Shown here: piece after piece, positions 8,404 through 42,292 of the stretch
How the letters are laid out: each line of letters starts with the position of its first letter
Position numbering within the stretch: position 1 is the first letter of the stretch
Sequence record: NC_041897.1
Origin: Escherichia phage K1ind1
Reading direction: 5' to 3' (one strand)
Length of the DNA: 42,292 nt
Made by a program: the position numbers and the translations under genes
Notes under the pieces: generated by a model
Databases searched by the model: none
The model's input: the letters and a program-made list of their open reading frames with translations, nothing else
What the model was told of the DNA's origin: nothing

Positions 8404-9018
8404 ATGGCGAAGACTAAAACAGAGATATTTACGCTAATCGGGTCTGAATTGCCGGATAACACAACCGGGCTAATCACCCCTGAGAAGTTACGCGGTGTTC
8501 TCACTCAAATGGCTGACCCGCCTATTTATGCCAACCCTGGCGTGAAAGAGGTTGAGGTGCTACGTGCGGCATCTACTGTCGTTCAGGCTCCGTCCGCGGT
8601 CGATACCGCGTTGCAACTAACCTTCGGTGCAGCGCAGGGTAGTGCCTCTGACCCTGTCATGATTAATGCCGCGGGTCTGGTAACTTTCAATACCGCGGGC
8701 AACTATGCCGTTCGCATTAAGCTACAGGCTGGGAGAACCGGAGCCAGCGGCACGTCTATCTTGTTGTCACGCATTCTGGTAAACGGCGCTCAGTACGGCT
8801 CGCCGGCAGCTACGAAACTGGTTAGCGCGGAAACTACCATCCCTATTGAATCCCGTGTAGTTATTAACCCAACCTCCGGACAAACATTTGCCGTTCAGAT
8901 TATGCGAGACAGCGCTGGGGCAAACTTCGGCGGCGTATATCCGCAGGCCGCAACAGTGACCGCATGGGGTACAGCACCTTCGGCATTACTGGTTATCTCG
9001 AGACTGGAGGCCGCGTAA
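8404..9018 (+). CDS. hypothetical structural protein
   Basis: 204 aa; stop overlaps next start (TAATG). Confidence 0.4.
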   Translation: MAKTKTEIFTLIGSELPDNTTGLITPEKLRGVLTQMADPPIYANPGVKEVEVLRAASTVVQAPSAVDTALQLTFGAAQGSASDPVMINAAGLVTFNTAGNYAVRIKLQAGRTGASGTSILLSRILVNGAQYGSPAATKLVSAETTIPIESRVVINPTSGQTFAVQIMRDSAGANFGGVYPQAATVTAWGTAPSALLVISRLEAA

Positions 9019-24417: not shown

Positions 24418-25838
24418 TTCTTACCTCGTCTCTTCATGTAATTAAGCAATTCTTCTTGCACAGATTTCTTTTCGTCAGTACGCGCGGCGACAACCTCGTC
24501 CAGCGTGTCTTTAGCAACGATGTGGTACAGGAACACCGGCCTCTCGTGTCCTGCCTGTTTCTGGCGGACCGGGCCTATTCGCTCGACAACCTGCAAATAG
24601 TGTTCAAGATTCCAGCCTTGCGAAATAAACGCCAGATGATGCCCGCCGTCCTGTAAATTCAAACCATGCCCGGCTGACGCAGGATGCACGCATAAGATTT
24701 CGATTTCCCCGCGGTTCCACGCTTCCATCTGCTTATTGCCCTTAGCGCCTTTGGCGAACGCCTGTGCTTGTGGGAATCGCTTAAGGATACGCTCAAGTTC
24801 GTGCTTAAACTGATAGGCTACCAGTAACGGTGCGCCCTGTAACTCCTCAACAATGGACTCAAGCGCATCCAGTTTCGTATCGTGCACTTTCTCCCAGTCT
24901 TTCGTTGCTTCGCCGTCTGGCCCGGATACATACACGGCACCGGATGCAATCTGCAGGCACTTCGACGTCTTCGCAGCAGCGTTAGCCGCTTCAACTTCCC
25001 CGCTCTCCAGTTCCGCGAATAACTTTTCCTCCATATCGATGTACGCCTGACGCGCCTTCTTCGGCAGGTCAATTTCCACTGGCACGATAATCGGCGCTTC
25101 GCAACCAAACCACTCGGCGGCGTCAATCGTGAGACTAATGTCTTTCATCTTCTGATGAATCTCATTATCCGCACCCGGTCGTGCGTGATACTCCCGCGCC
25201 ATCGCGGATTTCCCTTTCTGTACCGAGTTAAACCAGCGGTCTGTGAATGCCGTGTACGAAGAACCAAGGCGCTCGCCAGCGTCGATAAACCAGTTCTGCC
25301 CCCACAAGTCCTTGAGGCCGTTCGGCGACGGTGTGCCTGTCAGGTTAATGAAACGCTTAACCTTTCCGAACGCCACTTTGCTTAGCGCCTTAGCCCGTTT
25401 GCTTCCTCCAGAACGGCTACGGAAAGATTTCAGCTTCGTGCTCTCATCAGCAACGATAACCGTAAAAGGCCAGTCGTCTTTGCCGTAGTAGTCAATCAGC
25501 CACTCGATAACTTCGTAGTTTGTGCACACCACGTTAGCATCTGACTCCAGCGCCGCGATACGGCGCTTCTCTGAACCGGTTGCGTCTACGACACTCAGAC
25601 AGGGGAAGTTCCAACGTGCCTGTTCCGCGGGCCACGTACCTGACGCAACACGTAAAGGAGCCAGAATTAACACTCGGTCGTCGTCATTAAGTTGCCCATT
25701 ACGGAACAGCCGATTGAGAACCCACAACGTTGACCCCGACTTACCGCTGCCCATGCTCGCCCAGATATTGCAGCGATGGTGCCGCAGCATGAACGAAGTC
25801 ATGAGCTTCTGGTATTCGCGCCTTTGAAACTTACTCAT
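24414..25838 (-). CDS. superfamily-2 helicase (SNF2/DEAD-like)
   Basis: 474 aa; Walker A SMGSGKSGST, DExx box IVADESTK, motif VI-like QVVERIGPVRQKQ. Confidence 0.65.
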   Translation of the reverse strand: MSKFQRREYQKLMTSFMLRHHRCNIWASMGSGKSGSTLWVLNRLFRNGQLNDDDRVLILAPLRVASGTWPAEQARWNFPCLSVVDATGSEKRRIAALESDANVVCTNYEVIEWLIDYYGKDDWPFTVIVADESTKLKSFRSRSGGSKRAKALSKVAFGKVKRFINLTGTPSPNGLKDLWGQNWFIDAGERLGSSYTAFTDRWFNSVQKGKSAMAREYHARPGADNEIHQKMKDISLTIDAAEWFGCEAPIIVPVEIDLPKKARQAYIDMEEKLFAELESGEVEAANAAAKTSKCLQIASGAVYVSGPDGEATKDWEKVHDTKLDALESIVEELQGAPLLVAYQFKHELERILKRFPQAQAFAKGAKGNKQMEAWNRGEIEILCVHPASAGHGLNLQDGGHHLAFISQGWNLEHYLQVVERIGPVRQKQAGHERPVFLYHIVAKDTLDEVVAARTDEKKSVQEELLNYMKRRGKK

Positions 25839-36912: not shown

Positions 36913-37128
36913 ATGTTTAATGCAGTGGCGAGATGTTTTCACGCAATTTTCGGTGCTCCGCAAGAAGTATGCACCAAGCATAAATTTGTACTGTCTTGCG
37001 TGGTAGGGGATGAGTTTGATGGGTTCGATAAACTGTTGGTTTGCGACCATTGTGGGCAAGAAGCCATTAAGCACGCAAACGGTAAATTCGAACTAATTAG
37101 CGAGGAAGGGGACGGTGATGGTGAGTAA
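36913..37128 (+). CDS. small Cys-containing protein, zinc-ribbon-like
   Basis: 71 aa; C-x-x-C-like pair CDHCG plus upstream Cys; acidic tail. Confidence 0.4.
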   Translation: MFNAVARCFHAIFGAPQEVCTKHKFVLSCVVGDEFDGFDKLLVCDHCGQEAIKHANGKFELISEEGDGDGE

Positions 37129-37630
37129 CAAAAACGAAGTATTCGAGCACCTGATTGACCAGCTACGGCATCAGGTAAATAACAACCGGTGCGAAGACCT
37201 GGCGCATGAGGTGCAGATTAAGGAGTTGCGGGAAGACAACATTAAGAAATCTGAGCACATATCGCACCTGACCGGGCAAGTTAAGGAGTTGCGTCTGGCA
37301 TTGGCCGAGGCTACTGGTGACGTGGAGGCATACAAACTTATCCGCAAAGGTGCGTACGGTTCGGAGCAATCTGGTTGCCGAAAAGAAGATACGCAGGAAT
37401 GTGACCACAATTGGATTATCGCTCCAGGATTGTTTATTGCCGAAGGCCACAAGGACAACGTGCCCGGTAGCCTGTTTTGCTGCGAATGCGGCAAGCGTGA
37501 GTGGGACGGACTTGAGTATGGGGCAACAGCCTGTACACAGGAGTGCAAACACAGTTTCTATTATGTAATAACAGATGGCTCCGCGCCGTTCGGTACGAAA
37601 GTATGTAAAACGTGTGGGGAATACTTCTGA
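37115..37630 (+). CDS. hypothetical protein with coiled-coil N-terminus and Cys-rich C-terminus
   Basis: 171 aa; CCECG and CKTCG pairs. Confidence 0.45.
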   Translation: MMVSNKNEVFEHLIDQLRHQVNNNRCEDLAHEVQIKELREDNIKKSEHISHLTGQVKELRLALAEATGDVEAYKLIRKGAYGSEQSGCRKEDTQECDHNWIIAPGLFIAEGHKDNVPGSLFCCECGKREWDGLEYGATACTQECKHSFYYVITDGSAPFGTKVCKTCGEYF

Positions 37631-38510: not shown

Positions 38511-38775
38511 GCTATTCTGGTTTGTCACAATGCTTTCAATGGGCGCTTCGTCCCTGTTCAACGTGTATAATGAACGCGTGGACGACGGGCTGTTCGGGCG
38601 TGTTCTCTATATCCTGACTGCTATCGTCTGTGCCGCCGGATGTATTCACCTGTTACAGGGCAGCATGTCGCCTACGCTGCCTGAGACATTAATCACATTA
38701 GTCGCGCTGCGCCAGATTCGCCAGGCGTGGCTGTCATACGGAGGACATAAGCGTGTCTCGAAATATTTCAGATAA
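38503..38775 (+). CDS. second holin/antiholin-like membrane protein
   Basis: 90 aa from ATG 38503 (GGAGGA RBS); two to three hydrophobic helices; overlaps endolysin start. Confidence 0.4.
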   Translation: MTELFWFVTMLSMGASSLFNVYNERVDDGLFGRVLYILTAIVCAAGCIHLLQGSMSPTLPETLITLVALRQIRQAWLSYGGHKRVSKYFR

Positions 38776-39238
38776 TGGATTGCATTTCTGTGCCGCGTTC
38801 GAGGGATTCCGCGGAACTGCGTATCGCGCTACGCCGAACGAGAAGTACCTGACTATTGGTTATGGTCACTACGGGCCAGACGTAACACCAGGTAAGACCA
38901 TCACACCAGGACAGGGCTTGCTGTTACTGAATCGCGATATGGCTAAGGCTGTAGCTGCTGTTGACGCAGCAGCACACCATTCGCTTACACAGGCACAGTT
39001 CGATGCGGTGTGTGACCTGGTCTATAACGTGGGGGCTGGCGTGATTTCGGCTACTACCGGTACAGGTAAGGCACTGCGCTCCGGTGATATCGCGACGTTA
39101 CGGGCTAAGCTGGCGCTGTTCATCAACCAGAACGGCAAACCACTACTTGGCCTGCGTCGCCGTACAGCCGGGCGTCTGGCGCTGTTCGACGGTAAACCGT
39201 GGCAAGAGGCTGAGGCTATCGGTAGGGCGGTTAAATGA
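38753..39238 (+). CDS. endolysin, GH24 lysozyme (T4/lambda R-like)
   Basis: 161 aa; catalytic-region pattern HFCAAFEGFRGTAYRA ... IGYGHY typical of phage lysozymes. Confidence 0.75.
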   Translation: MSRNISDNGLHFCAAFEGFRGTAYRATPNEKYLTIGYGHYGPDVTPGKTITPGQGLLLLNRDMAKAVAAVDAAAHHSLTQAQFDAVCDLVYNVGAGVISATTGTGKALRSGDIATLRAKLALFINQNGKPLLGLRRRTAGRLALFDGKPWQEAEAIGRAVK

Positions 39239-39367
39239 TGGACGAATACGAAGGCGTTTAGTAAACTTACATCCACGCTGTTTGTGCCTGCATACTAAGC
39301 CCCGGTAAACCCGAAGCAGCAGCCCAAGCGGTGGAGACTGCGTAGGGTTCAGGGGCTTATGCCCGAA

Positions 39368-39396
39368 ACCCGGACCGCGAATCCGGGTTTTATTTT
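39368..39396 (+). terminator. rho-independent terminator
   Basis: ACCCGGA-CCGCGAA-TCCGGGT hairpin followed by TTTTATTTT. Confidence 0.6.
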
Positions 39397-39402
39397 ACCA
39401 AT

Positions 39403-39430
39403 TGACACCTGAGACTAATCCGACGATACT
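39403..39430 (+). promoter_or_regulatory. sigma70-like promoter TTGACA-16-GATACT
   Basis: consensus -35 hexamer read directly; followed 40 nt later by strong terminator. Confidence 0.45.
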
Positions 39431-39469
39431 TAAATCACCTCCTGTTCCATCCCTCTGCTCTCCAGTTTT

Positions 39470-39503
39470 ATCCCGGCCCTTACCCAGCCGGGATTTTTTT
39501 TAT
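39470..39503 (+). terminator. strong rho-independent terminator
   Basis: ATCCCGGC-loop-GCCGGGAT hairpin followed by T8. Confidence 0.65.
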
Positions 39504-39523: not shown

Positions 39524-39552
39524 TTGACTATTACCTTAGACCCTATTATATT
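39524..39552 (+). promoter_or_regulatory. sigma70-like promoter TTGACT-17-TATATT
   Basis: near-consensus hexamers; about 30 nt upstream of ATG 39586. Confidence 0.5.
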
Positions 39553-39585
39553 TACTCCATCGACAACGAGAACGGAGTAGAGAAA

Positions 39586-39735
39586 ATGAAAATCACAGAC
39601 ATCGAAGCATTCAAAGACGCACAACTGATGGCACGCATCGCCGTTAGTAACCTGAGCAACAGCATTCCAGCGGACGCGTTCTGGTTCGCTGCGATGCAGA
39701 CACTTAAAGCAGCTTATGCAGGAGAGAAGAAATGA
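39586..39735 (+). CDS. small hypothetical protein (49 aa)
   Basis: ATG with GGAGTAGAG RBS; below ORF-track cutoff. Confidence 0.3.
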   Translation: MKITDIEAFKDAQLMARIAVSNLSNSIPADAFWFAAMQTLKAAYAGEKK

Positions 39736-39893
39736 GCGAACAAGGCCCAGTAAGCCAGCCGTTACGAGTAGGCCGTAAAGTCAGTCACACCCCGTTCCCG
39801 ACACGCGAGGAACTGATGAAACGTAACAGTTTCCCCGGCCCGGACAAGAACAAGTATCTCAATCGCATGTGGGGAGAGTGTAAAAATGACTGA
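39732..39893 (+). CDS. small hypothetical protein (53 aa)
   Basis: ATGA-coupled to flanking ORFs. Confidence 0.3.
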   Translation: MSEQGPVSQPLRVGRKVSHTPFPTREELMKRNSFPGPDKNKYLNRMWGECKND

Positions 39894-40131
39894 CCGTGAA
39901 TACGAAAAGATGATGGTTGAGGCCGTTAACGGCGGCGCAGACATTAGCCATGTGATGTACGTCCTGAATACTAAAATCGCTGTAGCTGAGCAAATGGTTG
40001 AGTCGCTTTATGAGACGCGCCGTGAACTGATTAACCGCTTCAACCTGAACAAGTGCGAACATGAGTTCGACTACAATCCGAAGGATATGTGCGGGCAGTG
40101 TATTAAATGCGGGGTACAGCGTCATGCCTAA
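39886..40131 (+). CDS. small zinc-ribbon-like protein
   Basis: 81 aa; C-terminal CEHEFDY ... CGQCIKCG. Confidence 0.4.
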   Translation: MTDREYEKMMVEAVNGGADISHVMYVLNTKIAVAEQMVESLYETRRELINRFNLNKCEHEFDYNPKDMCGQCIKCGVQRHA

Positions 40132-40372
40132 AATCACAATCGCATCGCTCGAGCGCCGTATTCTGGTGCTTGAGTCGGAGAAACAGACGCTAGGCGGGCA
40201 ACTGTCGATTAACGGTGAGTACCAGTTAGCCGCATTTAAGGTTCTTCTCATGTTGTTGAGAGGAGAAGAGGAAAAGATGAACGCCTGCGAGCATGATTAC
40301 CGCCTGCATTTAGTTGATGGGGTGCATCGAGCCACGTGCATTAAATGTGGTAAAGCGTATGGAGTCGCCTAA
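40124..40372 (+). CDS. small zinc-ribbon-like protein (paralog of previous)
   Basis: about 82 aa from ATG 40124; C-terminal CEHDYRL ... CIKCG mirrors the preceding gene. Confidence 0.4.
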   Translation: MPKITIASLERRILVLESEKQTLGGQLSINGEYQLAAFKVLLMLLRGEEEKMNACEHDYRLHLVDGVHRATCIKCGKAYGVA

Positions 40373-40541
40373 ACCAGTAGTCATTGACGGCGTCCTGTGG
40401 AAACCTTACTCGGTTAACCACATCGACGCCGACGGGAAGAAGTTCAGCTTCTACATTTTTGCAATTAGCCGGGAACACGCCGCTTGTGTGGTCGACGACA
40501 TACGAGAAACGGCGTGGCTCGGTGATGAGATAGTGGGGTGA
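40359..40541 (+). CDS. hypothetical protein
   Basis: about 60 aa from ATG 40359. Confidence 0.35.
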   Translation: MESPKPVVIDGVLWKPYSVNHIDADGKKFSFYIFAISREHAACVVDDIRETAWLGDEIVG

Positions 40542-40545
40542 GAGT

Positions 40546-40776
40546 ATGTTTCATGAATTAAAGATATTACCTGAGCATTTTGAGCCTGTTTTAGCAGGCG
40601 TTAAGTTGGCGGAACTTCGATTAAACGACCGTAACTTTAAAGTGGACGATACTTTGTGTCTGAGAGAATACGAAAACGGTGGGTACACAGGCCGTATCGT
40701 TTACCGCCGCGTTATTCATGTTGCGGACGTAGGGGCTTACCTACCAGGGTATGTACTATTAAGTATGGAGGATTGA
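40546..40776 (+). CDS. DUF3850 / ASCH (PUA-like) domain protein
   Basis: 76 aa; ELKILPEHFEPVLAGVK..ELRLNDRNFKVDDTLCLRE pattern typical of this phage-associated family. Confidence 0.45.
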   Translation: MFHELKILPEHFEPVLAGVKLAELRLNDRNFKVDDTLCLREYENGGYTGRIVYRRVIHVADVGAYLPGYVLLSMED

Positions 40777-40778
40777 TT

Positions 40779-40862
40779 ATGAGTCTCGAGGTTGTTATCG
40801 GTCTTGTAGCGGCAAGCTATTTTATCGGCGTATTGATTGGGTTTATGTGGGGCCGTAAATAA
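40779..40862 (+). CDS. very small hydrophobic peptide (27 aa), tentative
   Basis: ATG with GGAGGA RBS; single hydrophobic helix; the longer ORF-track version starts inside the upstream gene. Confidence 0.25.
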   Translation: MSLEVVIGLVAASYFIGVLIGFMWGRK

Positions 40863-41143
40863 TGGCACGTACTGTCGCCGCGAGATTCACAGACATTGAA
40901 TCCGCTATTGAAGAAGCCGTTTACAGTAAGTTCTGCAACCCTTCTGCGGTTCATAACTACGGTATTATCATGCGGTACGGTAAGTTTGAAATTCGCAGGG
41001 TGCGCAGCAGTCGCCCGCAAGAGTTTTTATGGACCACAGAAAGCCTTGTCCCTAGATGCCACATCTACACAAGCGGTGCTCATACAGTTTTCGTAGACCT
41101 GGACAAGAAAGATATTACAGTTACTAAGGGAGAGATTAATTGA
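40862..41143 (+). CDS. hypothetical protein
   Basis: 93 aa ORF. Confidence 0.4.
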   Translation: MARTVAARFTDIESAIEEAVYSKFCNPSAVHNYGIIMRYGKFEIRRVRSSRPQEFLWTTESLVPRCHIYTSGAHTVFVDLDKKDITVTKGEIN

Positions 41144-41376
41144 TTACCAGCATTCCGAACCTGATTAAAGAATTTGGCACGATGGCGGAGACATGCCGAC
41201 AAACCGGCATCAACGAAATGACGATTGCGAAGTACAGCAAAGACGTAGATTGTGAACGCCATGTAATTTATAACAATCGTCTGATGACGCACGTTAAGAC
41301 AAGCCCGGTGTTATTCACGCGCCGGGGTATTACTAAAACAGAGCAACGTATTGCTAAAGAGGATAGTGGGGAATGA
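41140..41376 (+). CDS. hypothetical protein, possible HTH
   Basis: 78 aa from TTG (GGGAGAG RBS) or 64 aa from ATG 41182; ETCRQTGINEMTIAKY segment is HTH-like. Confidence 0.35.
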   Translation: MITSIPNLIKEFGTMAETCRQTGINEMTIAKYSKDVDCERHVIYNNRLMTHVKTSPVLFTRRGITKTEQRIAKEDSGE

Positions 41377-41531
41377 TTAGTATTCTGGAGTTCATCGACA
41401 ACCAAGTTTGGTACGAGCCAGAGTTAAATAAGTATTCAGTTAATGGGAAAATATTTCGGCGCAAAGGCCAGGCAGAGCGTTACGCAGCTAAACTATACCG
41501 TCAGCTTGTCAAGGATGGTTTCTTCAAATGA
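41373..41531 (+). CDS. small hypothetical protein (52 aa)
   Basis: ATGA-coupled; below ORF-track cutoff. Confidence 0.3.
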   Translation: MISILEFIDNQVWYEPELNKYSVNGKIFRRKGQAERYAAKLYRQLVKDGFFK

Positions 41532-41632
41532 GACTACTAATCATCCCTAACGCCTGGGCCATTCCCGTAGCTAACGACCATTACGGCGGCGACGGTAAAA
41601 GAGCACCACGCCACGGCCTATACAACTGATAC

Positions 41633-41656
41633 AAGCCCTCTACCGAGGGCTTTTCT
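41633..41656 (+). terminator. rho-independent terminator
   Basis: AGCCCTC-TACC-GAGGGCT hairpin followed by TTTT. Confidence 0.55.
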
Positions 41657-41750
41657 GTACATCCTGCCCAATCACCTTATATAATCCATTTAGACGCGTA
41701 GGGCGCGTCTGGTGCGCTCTGATGGTCAGACGCATATGCAAGGGGATTAT

Positions 41751-42292
41751 ATGAAGCTGAAACTCAAGCAGCCATCGCCAGAGGTGGTGCAAGCTGCACA
41801 TGAAGAAGCTGTTAGCGCAAACCGCCGACGTAAACGACCGCGCGGTAAACAGAGCCTTTATCAATCGTCCCGTAATTCCGCAGCGTTGTGGGACCCGGAC
41901 TATTGCGACGCGTTAATCGAGTTCTTCGACCGCACGTCATGGGAACTGGTGCCTACATCTAAGGGTGACGAACGCCCACTGATTCAGGATAAACCGCCGT
42001 CACTGGCCCGCTTTGCCTTACACATCGGCGTCACTATCCCTATTATTAAGCTATGGCTGCGTGAGATTCCAGCATTCGCAGAAGCCTGGGAGACCGCACA
42101 GGCACTGGAAGAGGCATACTTCACTGAGACCGGGGCCGCGGGCATCTCGGCTACATTTGCTGCCGCTAAGCTGAGCCTCGGCAAAGAGAAACCAGTTGAA
42201 TCCACCGAAGAAACGGTACCGACCGAGATTATTTTTAGTGTTGCAGAGCCTGTAGGTAAAATTGTAACAACGAATATGGGTGAGGTAGAGGA
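41751..42292 (+). CDS. terS: terminase small subunit (3' end runs off the window; closes onto position 1-4 if the molecule is circular)
   Basis: ORF open to the window edge with AAGGGGA RBS; position directly upstream of terL; at least 180 codons; the ORF was absent from the track because no stop lies inside the window. Confidence 0.55.
   Translation, partial: MKLKLKQPSPEVVQAAHEEAVSANRRRKRPRGKQSLYQSSRNSAALWDPDYCDALIEFFDRTSWELVPTSKGDERPLIQDKPPSLARFALHIGVTIPIIKLWLREIPAFAEAWETAQALEEAYFTETGAAGISATFAAAKLSLGKEKPVESTEETVPTEIIFSVAEPVGKIVTTNMGEVE

Follow-up and report, generated by a model that had tools for sequence, protein, structure and literature searches.

A candidate small-RNA gene, with its own promoter and a shared terminator, downstream of the endolysin gene of a Kagunavirus genome

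A short transcription unit downstream of the endolysin gene, made up of a promoter (P1), a pyrimidine-rich tract and an intrinsic terminator (T2), may well encode a small RNA of the Hfq type, about 65 nt long, whose C/U-rich 5' region would be unpaired; we put the probability of this reading at about one half. Judged from sequence comparison, the element is best described as real, conserved and unannotated as an RNA gene: a candidate phage sRNA with a promoter of its own and a terminator that it shares with the upstream operon. The database records that we inspected mark at most T2, annotated as a terminator in those of phages Ent1 and Schulenburg, or the following promoter, P2, annotated as such in that of phage Jersey; none marks P1 or an RNA gene. 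A small regulatory RNA had been the fallback in a preliminary description of this region, and it stands up, as does the anatomy given there. The idea preferred there, a late switch of the lambda pR'-tR' type worked by a Q-like antiterminator, fares less well: its defining features were looked for and not found, and the resemblance is one of geometry alone.

The P1-T2 unit and its setting

The window, by which we mean the whole 42,292-nucleotide stretch of DNA analysed, begins inside terL. Structural genes lie on the + strand up to about 24 kb; the replication genes, at about 24.4-35.4 kb, are on the - strand; the + strand then resumes with a group of small genes and with the lysis cassette, in which holins precede endolysin. 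Around the P1-T2 unit the closest phage is Escherichia phage K1G, at 99.8% identity, and 443 phage records match, mostly of Kagunavirus (Escherichia) and Jerseyvirus (Salmonella), both in the Guernseyvirinae; the window is a Kagunavirus genome of that subfamily. No integrase or lysogeny genes are found in annotated relatives of this phage group (annotations of Bas76 and Ent1), and a tRNA/tmRNA search of the window returned none. The features on which the argument turns are these:

38753-39238, + strand: endolysin gene, last of the lysis cassette (annotated as endolysin in K1G and relatives)
39239-39401, + strand: variable insert of 163 bp between endolysin and P1, a structured segment with its own terminator T1 (BLAST, fold, inverted repeat)
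39402-39430, + strand: promoter P1, TTGACA-17-GATACT (pattern scan, conservation in relatives)
39437-39501, + strand: predicted small RNA of about 65 nt, from a start placed about 7 nt after the -10 hexamer to the U-run (promoter geometry, fold)
39437-39469, + strand: pyrimidine-rich 5' region of that RNA, predicted unpaired (composition, folds)
39470-39501, + strand: intrinsic terminator T2, with 8-bp stem, 9-nt loop and U8 (fold, inverted repeat, annotation in relatives)
39524-39552, + strand: promoter P2, TTGACT-17-TATATT (pattern scan; hexamers invariant across genera)
39559-39588, + strand: P2 leader, with Shine-Dalgarno (SD) sequence GGAG at 39574-39577 and ATG at 39586 (27 nt identical between genera)
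39586-41629, + strand: P2 operon of small ORFs (PHROGs and Pfam scans)
41633-41685, + strand: second terminator-promoter junction, upstream of terS (scan, fold z = -3.7, 438 phage records)

The -35 hexamer of P1 occupies 39402-39407 and its -10 hexamer 39425-39430, 17 nt apart; the preliminary description had both hexamers right, but its start (39403) and its spacer (16 nt) were each off by one. Promoter-like matches of a generic kind are not enriched in the window (7, against 7.7 expected), whereas the strict form TTGACA-N17-NATANT occurs once in the 42 kb, at P1, against an expectation of 0.03; comparison with the lambda sequence shows that pL has the same hexamers and spacing. To follow P1 among relatives we anchored the search on the terminator-proximal part alone, which gathered 56 unique sequences. 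A promoter of the form TTGAC(A/G)-spacer-(G/C)ATACT lies no more than 70 nt upstream in 55 of them, with a -35 of TTGACA in 54 (TTGACG in one), a -10 of GATACT in 54 (CATACT in one) and a spacer of 17 nt in 54 (16 nt in one), while the spacer itself takes 25 different sequences. The lone exception (L017) has its P1 displaced 100 nt upstream by an element with 13-bp inverted-repeat ends, the only insert between P1 and T2 anywhere in the set. Fixed hexamers and spacing around freely varying sequence are the signature of selection for promoter activity, and P1 is, on this comparative evidence, under selection for promoter function.

T2 consists of the arms ATCCCGGC (39470-39477) and GCCGGGAT (39487-39494) enclosing a loop of 9 nt, and of a run of eight T at 39494-39501 that is the sole run of at least eight T on either strand of the window; the GC-rich hairpin and T8 reported earlier for 39470-39503 are thus present, with the hairpin spanning 39470-39494. 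The hairpin has a predicted energy of -13.8 kcal/mol (z = -3.3; none of 200 shuffles was equally good), and the U-run behind it measures 7-15 nt in all relatives. Its loop bears on two further points: at 9 nt it exceeds the limit of 8 in a simple terminator scan, which therefore missed T2, and since it also exceeds that of the strongest terminators, readthrough could be substantial. In a consensus fold of 12 Kagunavirus and Jerseyvirus sequences the stem shows one compensatory pair (C:G to U:A) and one G:U variant, a thin covariation signal which supports a terminator but not specifically an sRNA; stems of other sequence occupy the same position in more distant lineages.

In most relatives, including Ent1, Jersey, SP-101, PS1, ER1, PBSE191 and many IMG/VR loci, the endolysin stop codon directly abuts P1, so that in the typical genome T2 would also end the lysis operon. 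The window departs from this arrangement by its 163-bp insert (fold -57.7 kcal/mol, z = -2.3), whose terminator T1 has a stem at 39366-39374/39382-39390 followed by TTATTTT. All or part of the insert is common to K1G, Schulenburg (L002) and four IMG/VR relatives; most relatives lack it, and inserts of other kinds occupy the same point between endolysin and P1 in others. The unit had been described as following the endolysin terminator. That terminator exists, as T1, but as part of an insert missing from most relatives, where the lysis operon is ended by T2 instead.

Downstream, P2 was confirmed exactly where it had been proposed, with TTGACT at 39524-39529 and TATATT at 39547-39552 separated by 17 nt; it is a near-consensus promoter 22 bp past the T-run of T2. 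Because an independent promoter stands directly past the terminator, the downstream genes have no need of readthrough. Given P2, P1 would be unnecessary for expressing them, a point that we count for the small-RNA reading. The P2 operon encodes a NinH-like protein (below the Pfam cut-off), a DUF3850/ASCH-like protein and others without assigned function; to judge from these scans its genes are small nin-like ORFs and not structural or late genes. It is separated from the packaging genes by the second junction, in which a terminator at 41633-41650 (hairpin AAGCCCUC/GAGGGCUU) is followed by the promoter TGTACA-18-TATAAT at 41656-41685, ahead of the terS ATG at 41752. A possible SD-sequestering hairpin in the P2 leader (TACTCC/GGAGTA) was discarded: Jerseyvirus does not keep its left arm, and this arm probably precedes the P2 start site.

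The predicted RNA and its conservation

With its start put at about 39437 by promoter geometry and its end at about 39500, the predicted transcript is 63-65 nt long and reads ACCUCCUGUUCCAUCCCUCUGCUCUCCAGUUUU, then the hairpin, then U8. Its 5' region of 33 nt contains 14 C, 13 U, 3 A and 3 G, hence 27 pyrimidines, arranged as CCUCCU, an invariant core CAUCCCUCU, and CUCUCC, with AGUUUU at the end just before the hairpin. This region is predicted to be unpaired in every lineage, by single-sequence and consensus folds alike; in the consensus fold of the 12 Kagunavirus and Jerseyvirus sequences the terminator helix stands alone, and the 5' 36 alignment columns are unpaired. Directly 5' of the hairpin there is a U-rich stretch, AGUUUUAU in Kagunavirus, UUUAU or UUCAU in Jerseyvirus and CUUUG in distant relatives. 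Hfq-dependent enterobacterial sRNAs carry a 3' module of U-rich stretch, GC hairpin and long U tail, and the 3' end predicted here would resemble it. Two other traits by which such sRNAs are recognized are present as well: a promoter of its own together with a Rho-independent terminator that has a tail of at least seven U, and a conserved single-stranded seed, CAUCCCUCU being both invariant between genera and unpaired.

Conservation of the region has sharp borders. When the intergenic region was compared by BLAST with about 50 related IMG/VR loci, similarity set in precisely with the first base of the P1 -35 hexamer (39402), a border seen in about 30 relatives, and continued to the ATG at 39586. 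The block from P1 to this ATG is conserved in the 443 phage records, while the first gene after the ATG is mosaic, with at least five alternatives among relatives. Of 2.9 million IMG/VR contigs, 40 contain the exact composite: 37 are genomes of 40-45 kb, and three are shorter pieces from the same group. Conservation of the composite spans both genera and reaches beyond them.

Comparison of the window with Ent1, which belongs to the other genus, provides a yardstick: the endolysin DNA is 72% identical, its third positions at conserved amino acids are 52% identical, and the non-coding block is 77% identical. The two agree fully in the hexamers of P1 and P2, in both arms of the stem, in the T-run with the ATCT behind it, in 27 nt of the P2 leader and in CATCCCTCT, a stretch that does not differ between Kagunavirus and Jerseyvirus. 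The identity of the block and the invariance of CATCCCTCT, set against the 52% synonymous yardstick, indicate constraint on the transcribed tract itself and not on promoter and terminator alone. Such a tract could also have its role in the DNA itself, or in the lysis mRNA as its 3' UTR.

The same layout recurs where similarity of the block is no longer detectable. In 11 more distant loci, with endolysins 69-81% identical, a -35-like TTGGAC lies within the last endolysin codons and a -10 (TATATT, TATAGT, TATACT or TAGGAT) 3-6 nt past the endolysin stop, at a spacing of 17 nt in six loci and a less canonical 19 nt in five. A non-coding segment comes next, giving predicted RNAs of 48-335 nt, and is closed in 9 of the 11 by a C-rich tract (AAAUUCCAYSCAGCCAGCYUUU). 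All 11 then have a GC hairpin of different stem sequence with a U-run (U8-10 in ten, U5 in L044), followed directly by ATCT in ten, and all have a P2-like promoter (-35 TTGCAT or TTGCAA) with a conserved leader. The shortest version (L043), of about 48 nt, closely parallels that of the window.

We propose that host sigma-70 RNA polymerase would start constitutively at P1, at about 39437, and stop at the T2 hairpin and U8, so releasing an RNA of about 65 nt. The RNA would probably act in trans, its CCUCCU, CAUCCCUCU and CUCUCC motifs pairing with ribosome-binding regions, rich in purines, on mRNAs of the host or the phage. In most relatives T2 would have a second role, ending the lysis-operon transcript, and P2 would then restart transcription independently for the next operon. 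This second role of T2 would give the RNA the build of a 3'-end sRNA that has a promoter to itself but shares its terminator.

The search for targets within the phage was negative. A whole-genome duplex scan gave nothing that stood out: apart from itself, the RNA found its best partner in 11 complementary nt within the helicase gene, and by our estimate chance would supply about 0.5 such matches; a search of the phage genome for the complement of the conserved core, allowing up to two mismatches, gave no further sites beyond chance expectation. The start region at 39586 ranks 33rd of 301 for duplex energy. Among 47 homologous start regions of the window and Ent1 no target had the same pairing register in both genera; a neck gene at 9018, marginal as a candidate, was rejected because the part of the RNA with which it pairs is not the same in the two.

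Other identities for the transcript were considered in turn. It is not the product of a moron, a cassette of promoter, gene and terminator, as the predicted 65 nt contain no start codon with an SD sequence; a micro-ORF of 6-7 codons on the minus strand was set aside, there being no plausible transcription of it; and the likeness of the hairpin to type I-E CRISPR repeats is, by eye, superficial and in the wrong orientation. In neither the window nor 10 related loci does any Rfam family reach its gathering score. Two models alone gave even weak matches, RF02278 (25.3 bits against a gathering score of 50, the best of the sub-threshold matches) and mmgR/suhB, RF00519 (12.8 against 41). A search of 5,426 E. 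coli genomes for a host homologue or mimic of the RNA produced no match.

Alternative accounts of the block

An unlikely but serious alternative is that the block is a terminator-insulator with tandem promoters: T2 would end the lysis operon and shield P2, P1 would serve as an auxiliary promoter by way of readthrough, and the RNA would be a by-product without function. This fits the abutting of the endolysin stop on the block in most relatives, which makes T2 the lysis-operon terminator, and the second junction before terS, which shows that such terminator-promoter arrangements are used repeatedly in this genome; it would account for the failure of the phage scans to find a target, and the 9-nt loop of T2 suggests the leak that it needs. 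An auxiliary promoter would, however, serve better 3' of the terminator. Nor does a by-product explain why the hexamers and spacing of P1 are kept in 55 of the 56 unique sequences, why constraint on the transcribed tract, in which CATCCCTCT is invariant, so far exceeds that at synonymous sites, or why distant relatives retain a promoter before the same terminator although the sequence between them differs.

We think it improbable that the pyrimidine tract acts in cis, whether by setting the stability of the lysis mRNA or, in readthrough RNA, by pairing with the GGAGUAGAG SD region and so silencing the first P2 gene unless transcription starts at P2. In minimum-energy folds from P1 to the ATG the tract does bind the SD/AUG region, both in the window and, with greater strength, in Ent1 (z = -3.8), and tract and SD region are both highly conserved; but the fold of the window is no better than that of shuffled sequences (z = -0.7), the modest rank of the 39586 start region for duplex energy offers no encouragement, and the register of pairing differs between genera. 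The distant relatives, moreover, keep the layout with a C-rich tract that by eye is not complementary to the leader, and the conservation of P1 is left unexplained.

We likewise give little credence to regulated readthrough, in which transcripts from P1 would halt at T2 unless a phage factor (Q-like, N-like or RNA-binding) modified the polymerase or masked the hairpin, boosting the downstream genes late in infection. The geometry is that of lambda pR'-tR', a constitutive-looking promoter with an intrinsic terminator no more than 40 nt further on, and, judged by sequence, P1 and T2 supply the pairing of promoter and terminator that would yield a short RNA. Short pR' transcripts can, besides, double as sRNAs, as StxS does (PMC7547250). 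Beyond this the likeness ends. The gene immediately upstream of the unit is endolysin, not Q; no antiterminator family (Q, N or other) was recognized by PHROGs among 19 small + strand ORFs and one spurious antisense ORF, nor by Pfam among 10 of those 19, and neither the careful annotation of Bas76 nor that of Ent1 includes such a gene, so that the earlier suggestion to look for a Q-like protein had no issue. A conceivable factor of a new kind, though not one that can be called Q-like, is an unclassified protein of 171 aa encoded upstream of the lysis genes (37115-37630), which begins with a coiled coil and is Cys-rich at its C-terminus; it has no sequence match in PDB, and its AlphaFold model is of low confidence (pLDDT 64, pTM 0.28). 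The leader, too, is of the wrong kind: by inspection no -10-like pause hexamer (TAnnnT-type, in the first ~25 nt) is conserved in ACCTCCTGTTCCATCCCTCTGCTC or its Jerseyvirus counterpart GCTCCTGCTTATTCATCCCTCT; there is no boxA/boxB, nut, put or double stem-loop, the leader being unpaired in single-sequence and consensus folds; and, being G-poor, it cannot pair with the stem as an alternative antiterminator helix. Late-gene control by the unit, as first proposed, is also at odds with gene order, for the lysis cassette lies upstream, P2 follows directly past T2, and the downstream operon is one of small nin-like genes closed by a further terminator-promoter pair before terS.

A transcription-primed replication origin of the T7 type at this site was dismissed: the extremes of cumulative GC skew fall at about 24 and 35 kb, where gene orientation switches, and no switch is seen at 39.5 kb, though this is a weak test.

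Relation to known small RNAs

A close parallel to the small-RNA gene proposed here is found in host bacteria. DapZ and MicL are enterobacterial 3'-end sRNAs, each with its own promoter and a terminator shared with an mRNA; the phage unit is like them in having, in most relatives, a promoter at or after the end of the upstream gene and a shared terminator, and its predicted RNA in having a single-stranded seed, U-rich stretch, GC hairpin and long U tail. It differs in being phage-encoded, and in that T1 uncouples it from the endolysin mRNA in the window. RF02278, a toxic sRNA of Betaproteobacteria known for its C/U-rich anti-SD motifs, and RF00519 likewise combine C/U-rich motifs of the CCUCC type with an intrinsic terminator. 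In those families, however, the motifs lie in hairpin loops, whereas in the phage RNA they are in the predicted unpaired 5' region, and with scores so far below gathering the predicted RNA is, as far as covariance models can tell, a member of neither.

Work on phage regulatory RNAs has concentrated on temperate phages, and strictly lytic ones have received far less attention. Among the RNAs of temperate phages, the 6S RNA of lambda pR'-tR' and StxS (PMC7547250) are like the proposed RNA in arising from a constitutive sigma-70 promoter with an intrinsic terminator close by, as a short RNA near the lysis genes; StxS, the short pR' RNA of Stx phages, binds Hfq and acts in trans (PMC7547250). The P1-T2 unit is unlike them in having no Q gene, pause element or dependence on readthrough (P2 follows), in lying downstream and not upstream of the lysis genes, and in sequence, which shows no similarity; the present group, unlike the phages carrying those RNAs, has no integrase or lysogeny genes in its annotated relatives. 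Phage sRNAs that act in trans, such as PreS of lambda, work on host or phage mRNAs during lytic growth (bioRxiv 10.1101/2024.10.31.621285; PMC12197685). PreS and the sRNAs collected in PMC12197685 have their own promoter and terminator, as predicted for the RNA described here, but bear no relation to it in sequence or position. That review deals almost entirely with temperate phages and prophages, with exceptions such as Pseudomonas phage PAK_P4, and includes no Jersey-like phages.

For the phage group itself the literature offers in-silico lists of promoters and terminators only; the single Kagunavirus RNA-seq study used standard libraries and gene-level counts, which hold no start-site or small-RNA data.

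It is possible, if speculative, that an abundant RNA of about 65 nt, made throughout the Guernseyvirinae (more than 400 sequenced genomes, no lysogeny genes) from a promoter of pL strength and carrying three anti-Shine-Dalgarno-like motifs, acts globally in host takeover, either by blocking ribosome-binding sites that are rich in purines or by titrating away a host factor with affinity for C/U-rich RNA, such as Hfq, Rho or ribosomal protein S1. Were this so, the longer structured RNA modules found in the same slot in distant relatives would make the position after endolysin a dedicated locus for non-coding RNA. If real, the RNA would be a simple, strongly expressed sRNA conserved across phages of Escherichia, Salmonella and Raoultella that are under development for therapy and food safety. 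It would be easy to test, since a single promoter mutation would remove it. Apart from any function of the RNA, the exact position of the P1-T2-P2-leader block between mosaic segments makes it a useful landmark for module exchange and for the placement of payload genes.

Elements inserted around P1

Extra sequence separates the endolysin gene from the promoter P1 in K1ind1, and related IMG/VR phage loci (L numbers) carry other elements at this locus:

39239-39401: 163-bp insert between the endolysin gene and P1, comprising a long imperfect hairpin and its own terminator
L008 4490-4610, L019 4540-4655, L038 3400-3515, L027 4560-4665 and L044 3740-3860: module of about 110-120 nt
L017 4683-4785: 100-nt insertion exactly between the P1 -10 and the pyrimidine tract
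L010 4484-4573: hydrophobic 29-codon ORF (MTEIDFILLSIGVGAVVGAFWGAIDAFRKG) between the endolysin gene and P1

The imperfect hairpin of the 163-bp insert spans about 39289-39362, its terminator lies at 39366-39390, followed by TTATTTT, and the fold energy of the whole is -57.7 kcal/mol (z = -2.3). The insert is confined to some relatives: it is present in K1G, L002 (Schulenburg), L007, L017 and L031, and partly in L013; its terminator portion is seen again, in different contexts, in L020, L027, L028 and L038. A second small RNA is one possibility for the insert, a mobile 3'UTR module another.

In several Kagunavirus contigs the 110-120-nt module, whose core is CGCGGACCTGTAACAAGGTCGGGCC..GTGCGGTAACGCGTGCCGGAG, precedes P1; in one distant relative it is found between the promoter that straddles the endolysin stop and the terminator. 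One helix of the L044 copy shows apparently compensatory changes (GAGGG...CCCTC vs GTAG...CTAC); the module has no match in Rfam and is possibly a structured phage RNA not described before. Inverted repeats of 13 bp (TTAGGCGAGTAGT / ACTACTCGCCTAA) form the ends of the L017 insertion, which resembles a miniature inverted-repeat element; the predicted RNA would gain a 5' hairpin from it. In L010, the TGA stop of the short ORF overlaps the P1 -35 (GGTTGACA).

In three distant relatives (L037, L042, L047) 220-335 nt of non-coding DNA separate the promoter at the endolysin stop from the shared terminator, a slot reaching up to about 350 nt past the stop. Motifs recur within it, GGAACTTACCCGACAATGAGTTTC and AGGAGGTGGTCCCTATCTCCCGCTGC for example, which points to RNAs that would be longer and modular at the locus equivalent to P1-T2 (T2 being the terminator of the predicted RNA).

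Junctions downstream

The leader of the second promoter, P2 (39559-39588), includes 27 nt that are identical between genera, and at least five unrelated genes alternate as the first gene, beginning at ATG 39586; breakpoints of recombination thus fall exactly at the start codon, and the conserved block may be a shared linker for module exchange. A further junction precedes terS:

41633-41711: second terminator-promoter junction

Here a hairpin, AAGCCCUC-UACC-GAGGGCUU, is followed by the promoter TGTACA-18-TATAAT and, 3' of this, by a perfect 8-bp hairpin in the terS leader (AGACGCGT-AGG-GCGCGTCT, about 41693-41711). Matches to the region of this junction occur in 438 phage records.

Protein genes and a complementary site

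40546-40776, + strand: 76-aa DUF3850/ASCH-like protein (PHROG 986, labelled 'RNA-binding protein')
37115-37630, + strand: 171-aa protein, coiled coil at the N-terminus, Cys-rich region at the C-terminus

The 76-aa protein, encoded in the P2-driven operon, is a possible partner of an RNA element; nothing was found linking the two. In the helicase gene (about 24986-25015, - strand), 11 nt (AACTGGAGAGC) are perfectly complementary to the 3' portion of the single-stranded region in the predicted RNA; by chance the K1ind1 genome would contain about 0.5 such complements.

The 171-aa protein has more than 1,100 homologues (112-276 aa among the matches listed), one of which is named 'tolA-binding protein' by one source. 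Its coiled coil varies in length and its AlphaFold model is of low confidence; C87, C121 and C124 are invariant, and C95, C143, C163 and C166 are at least 90% conserved.
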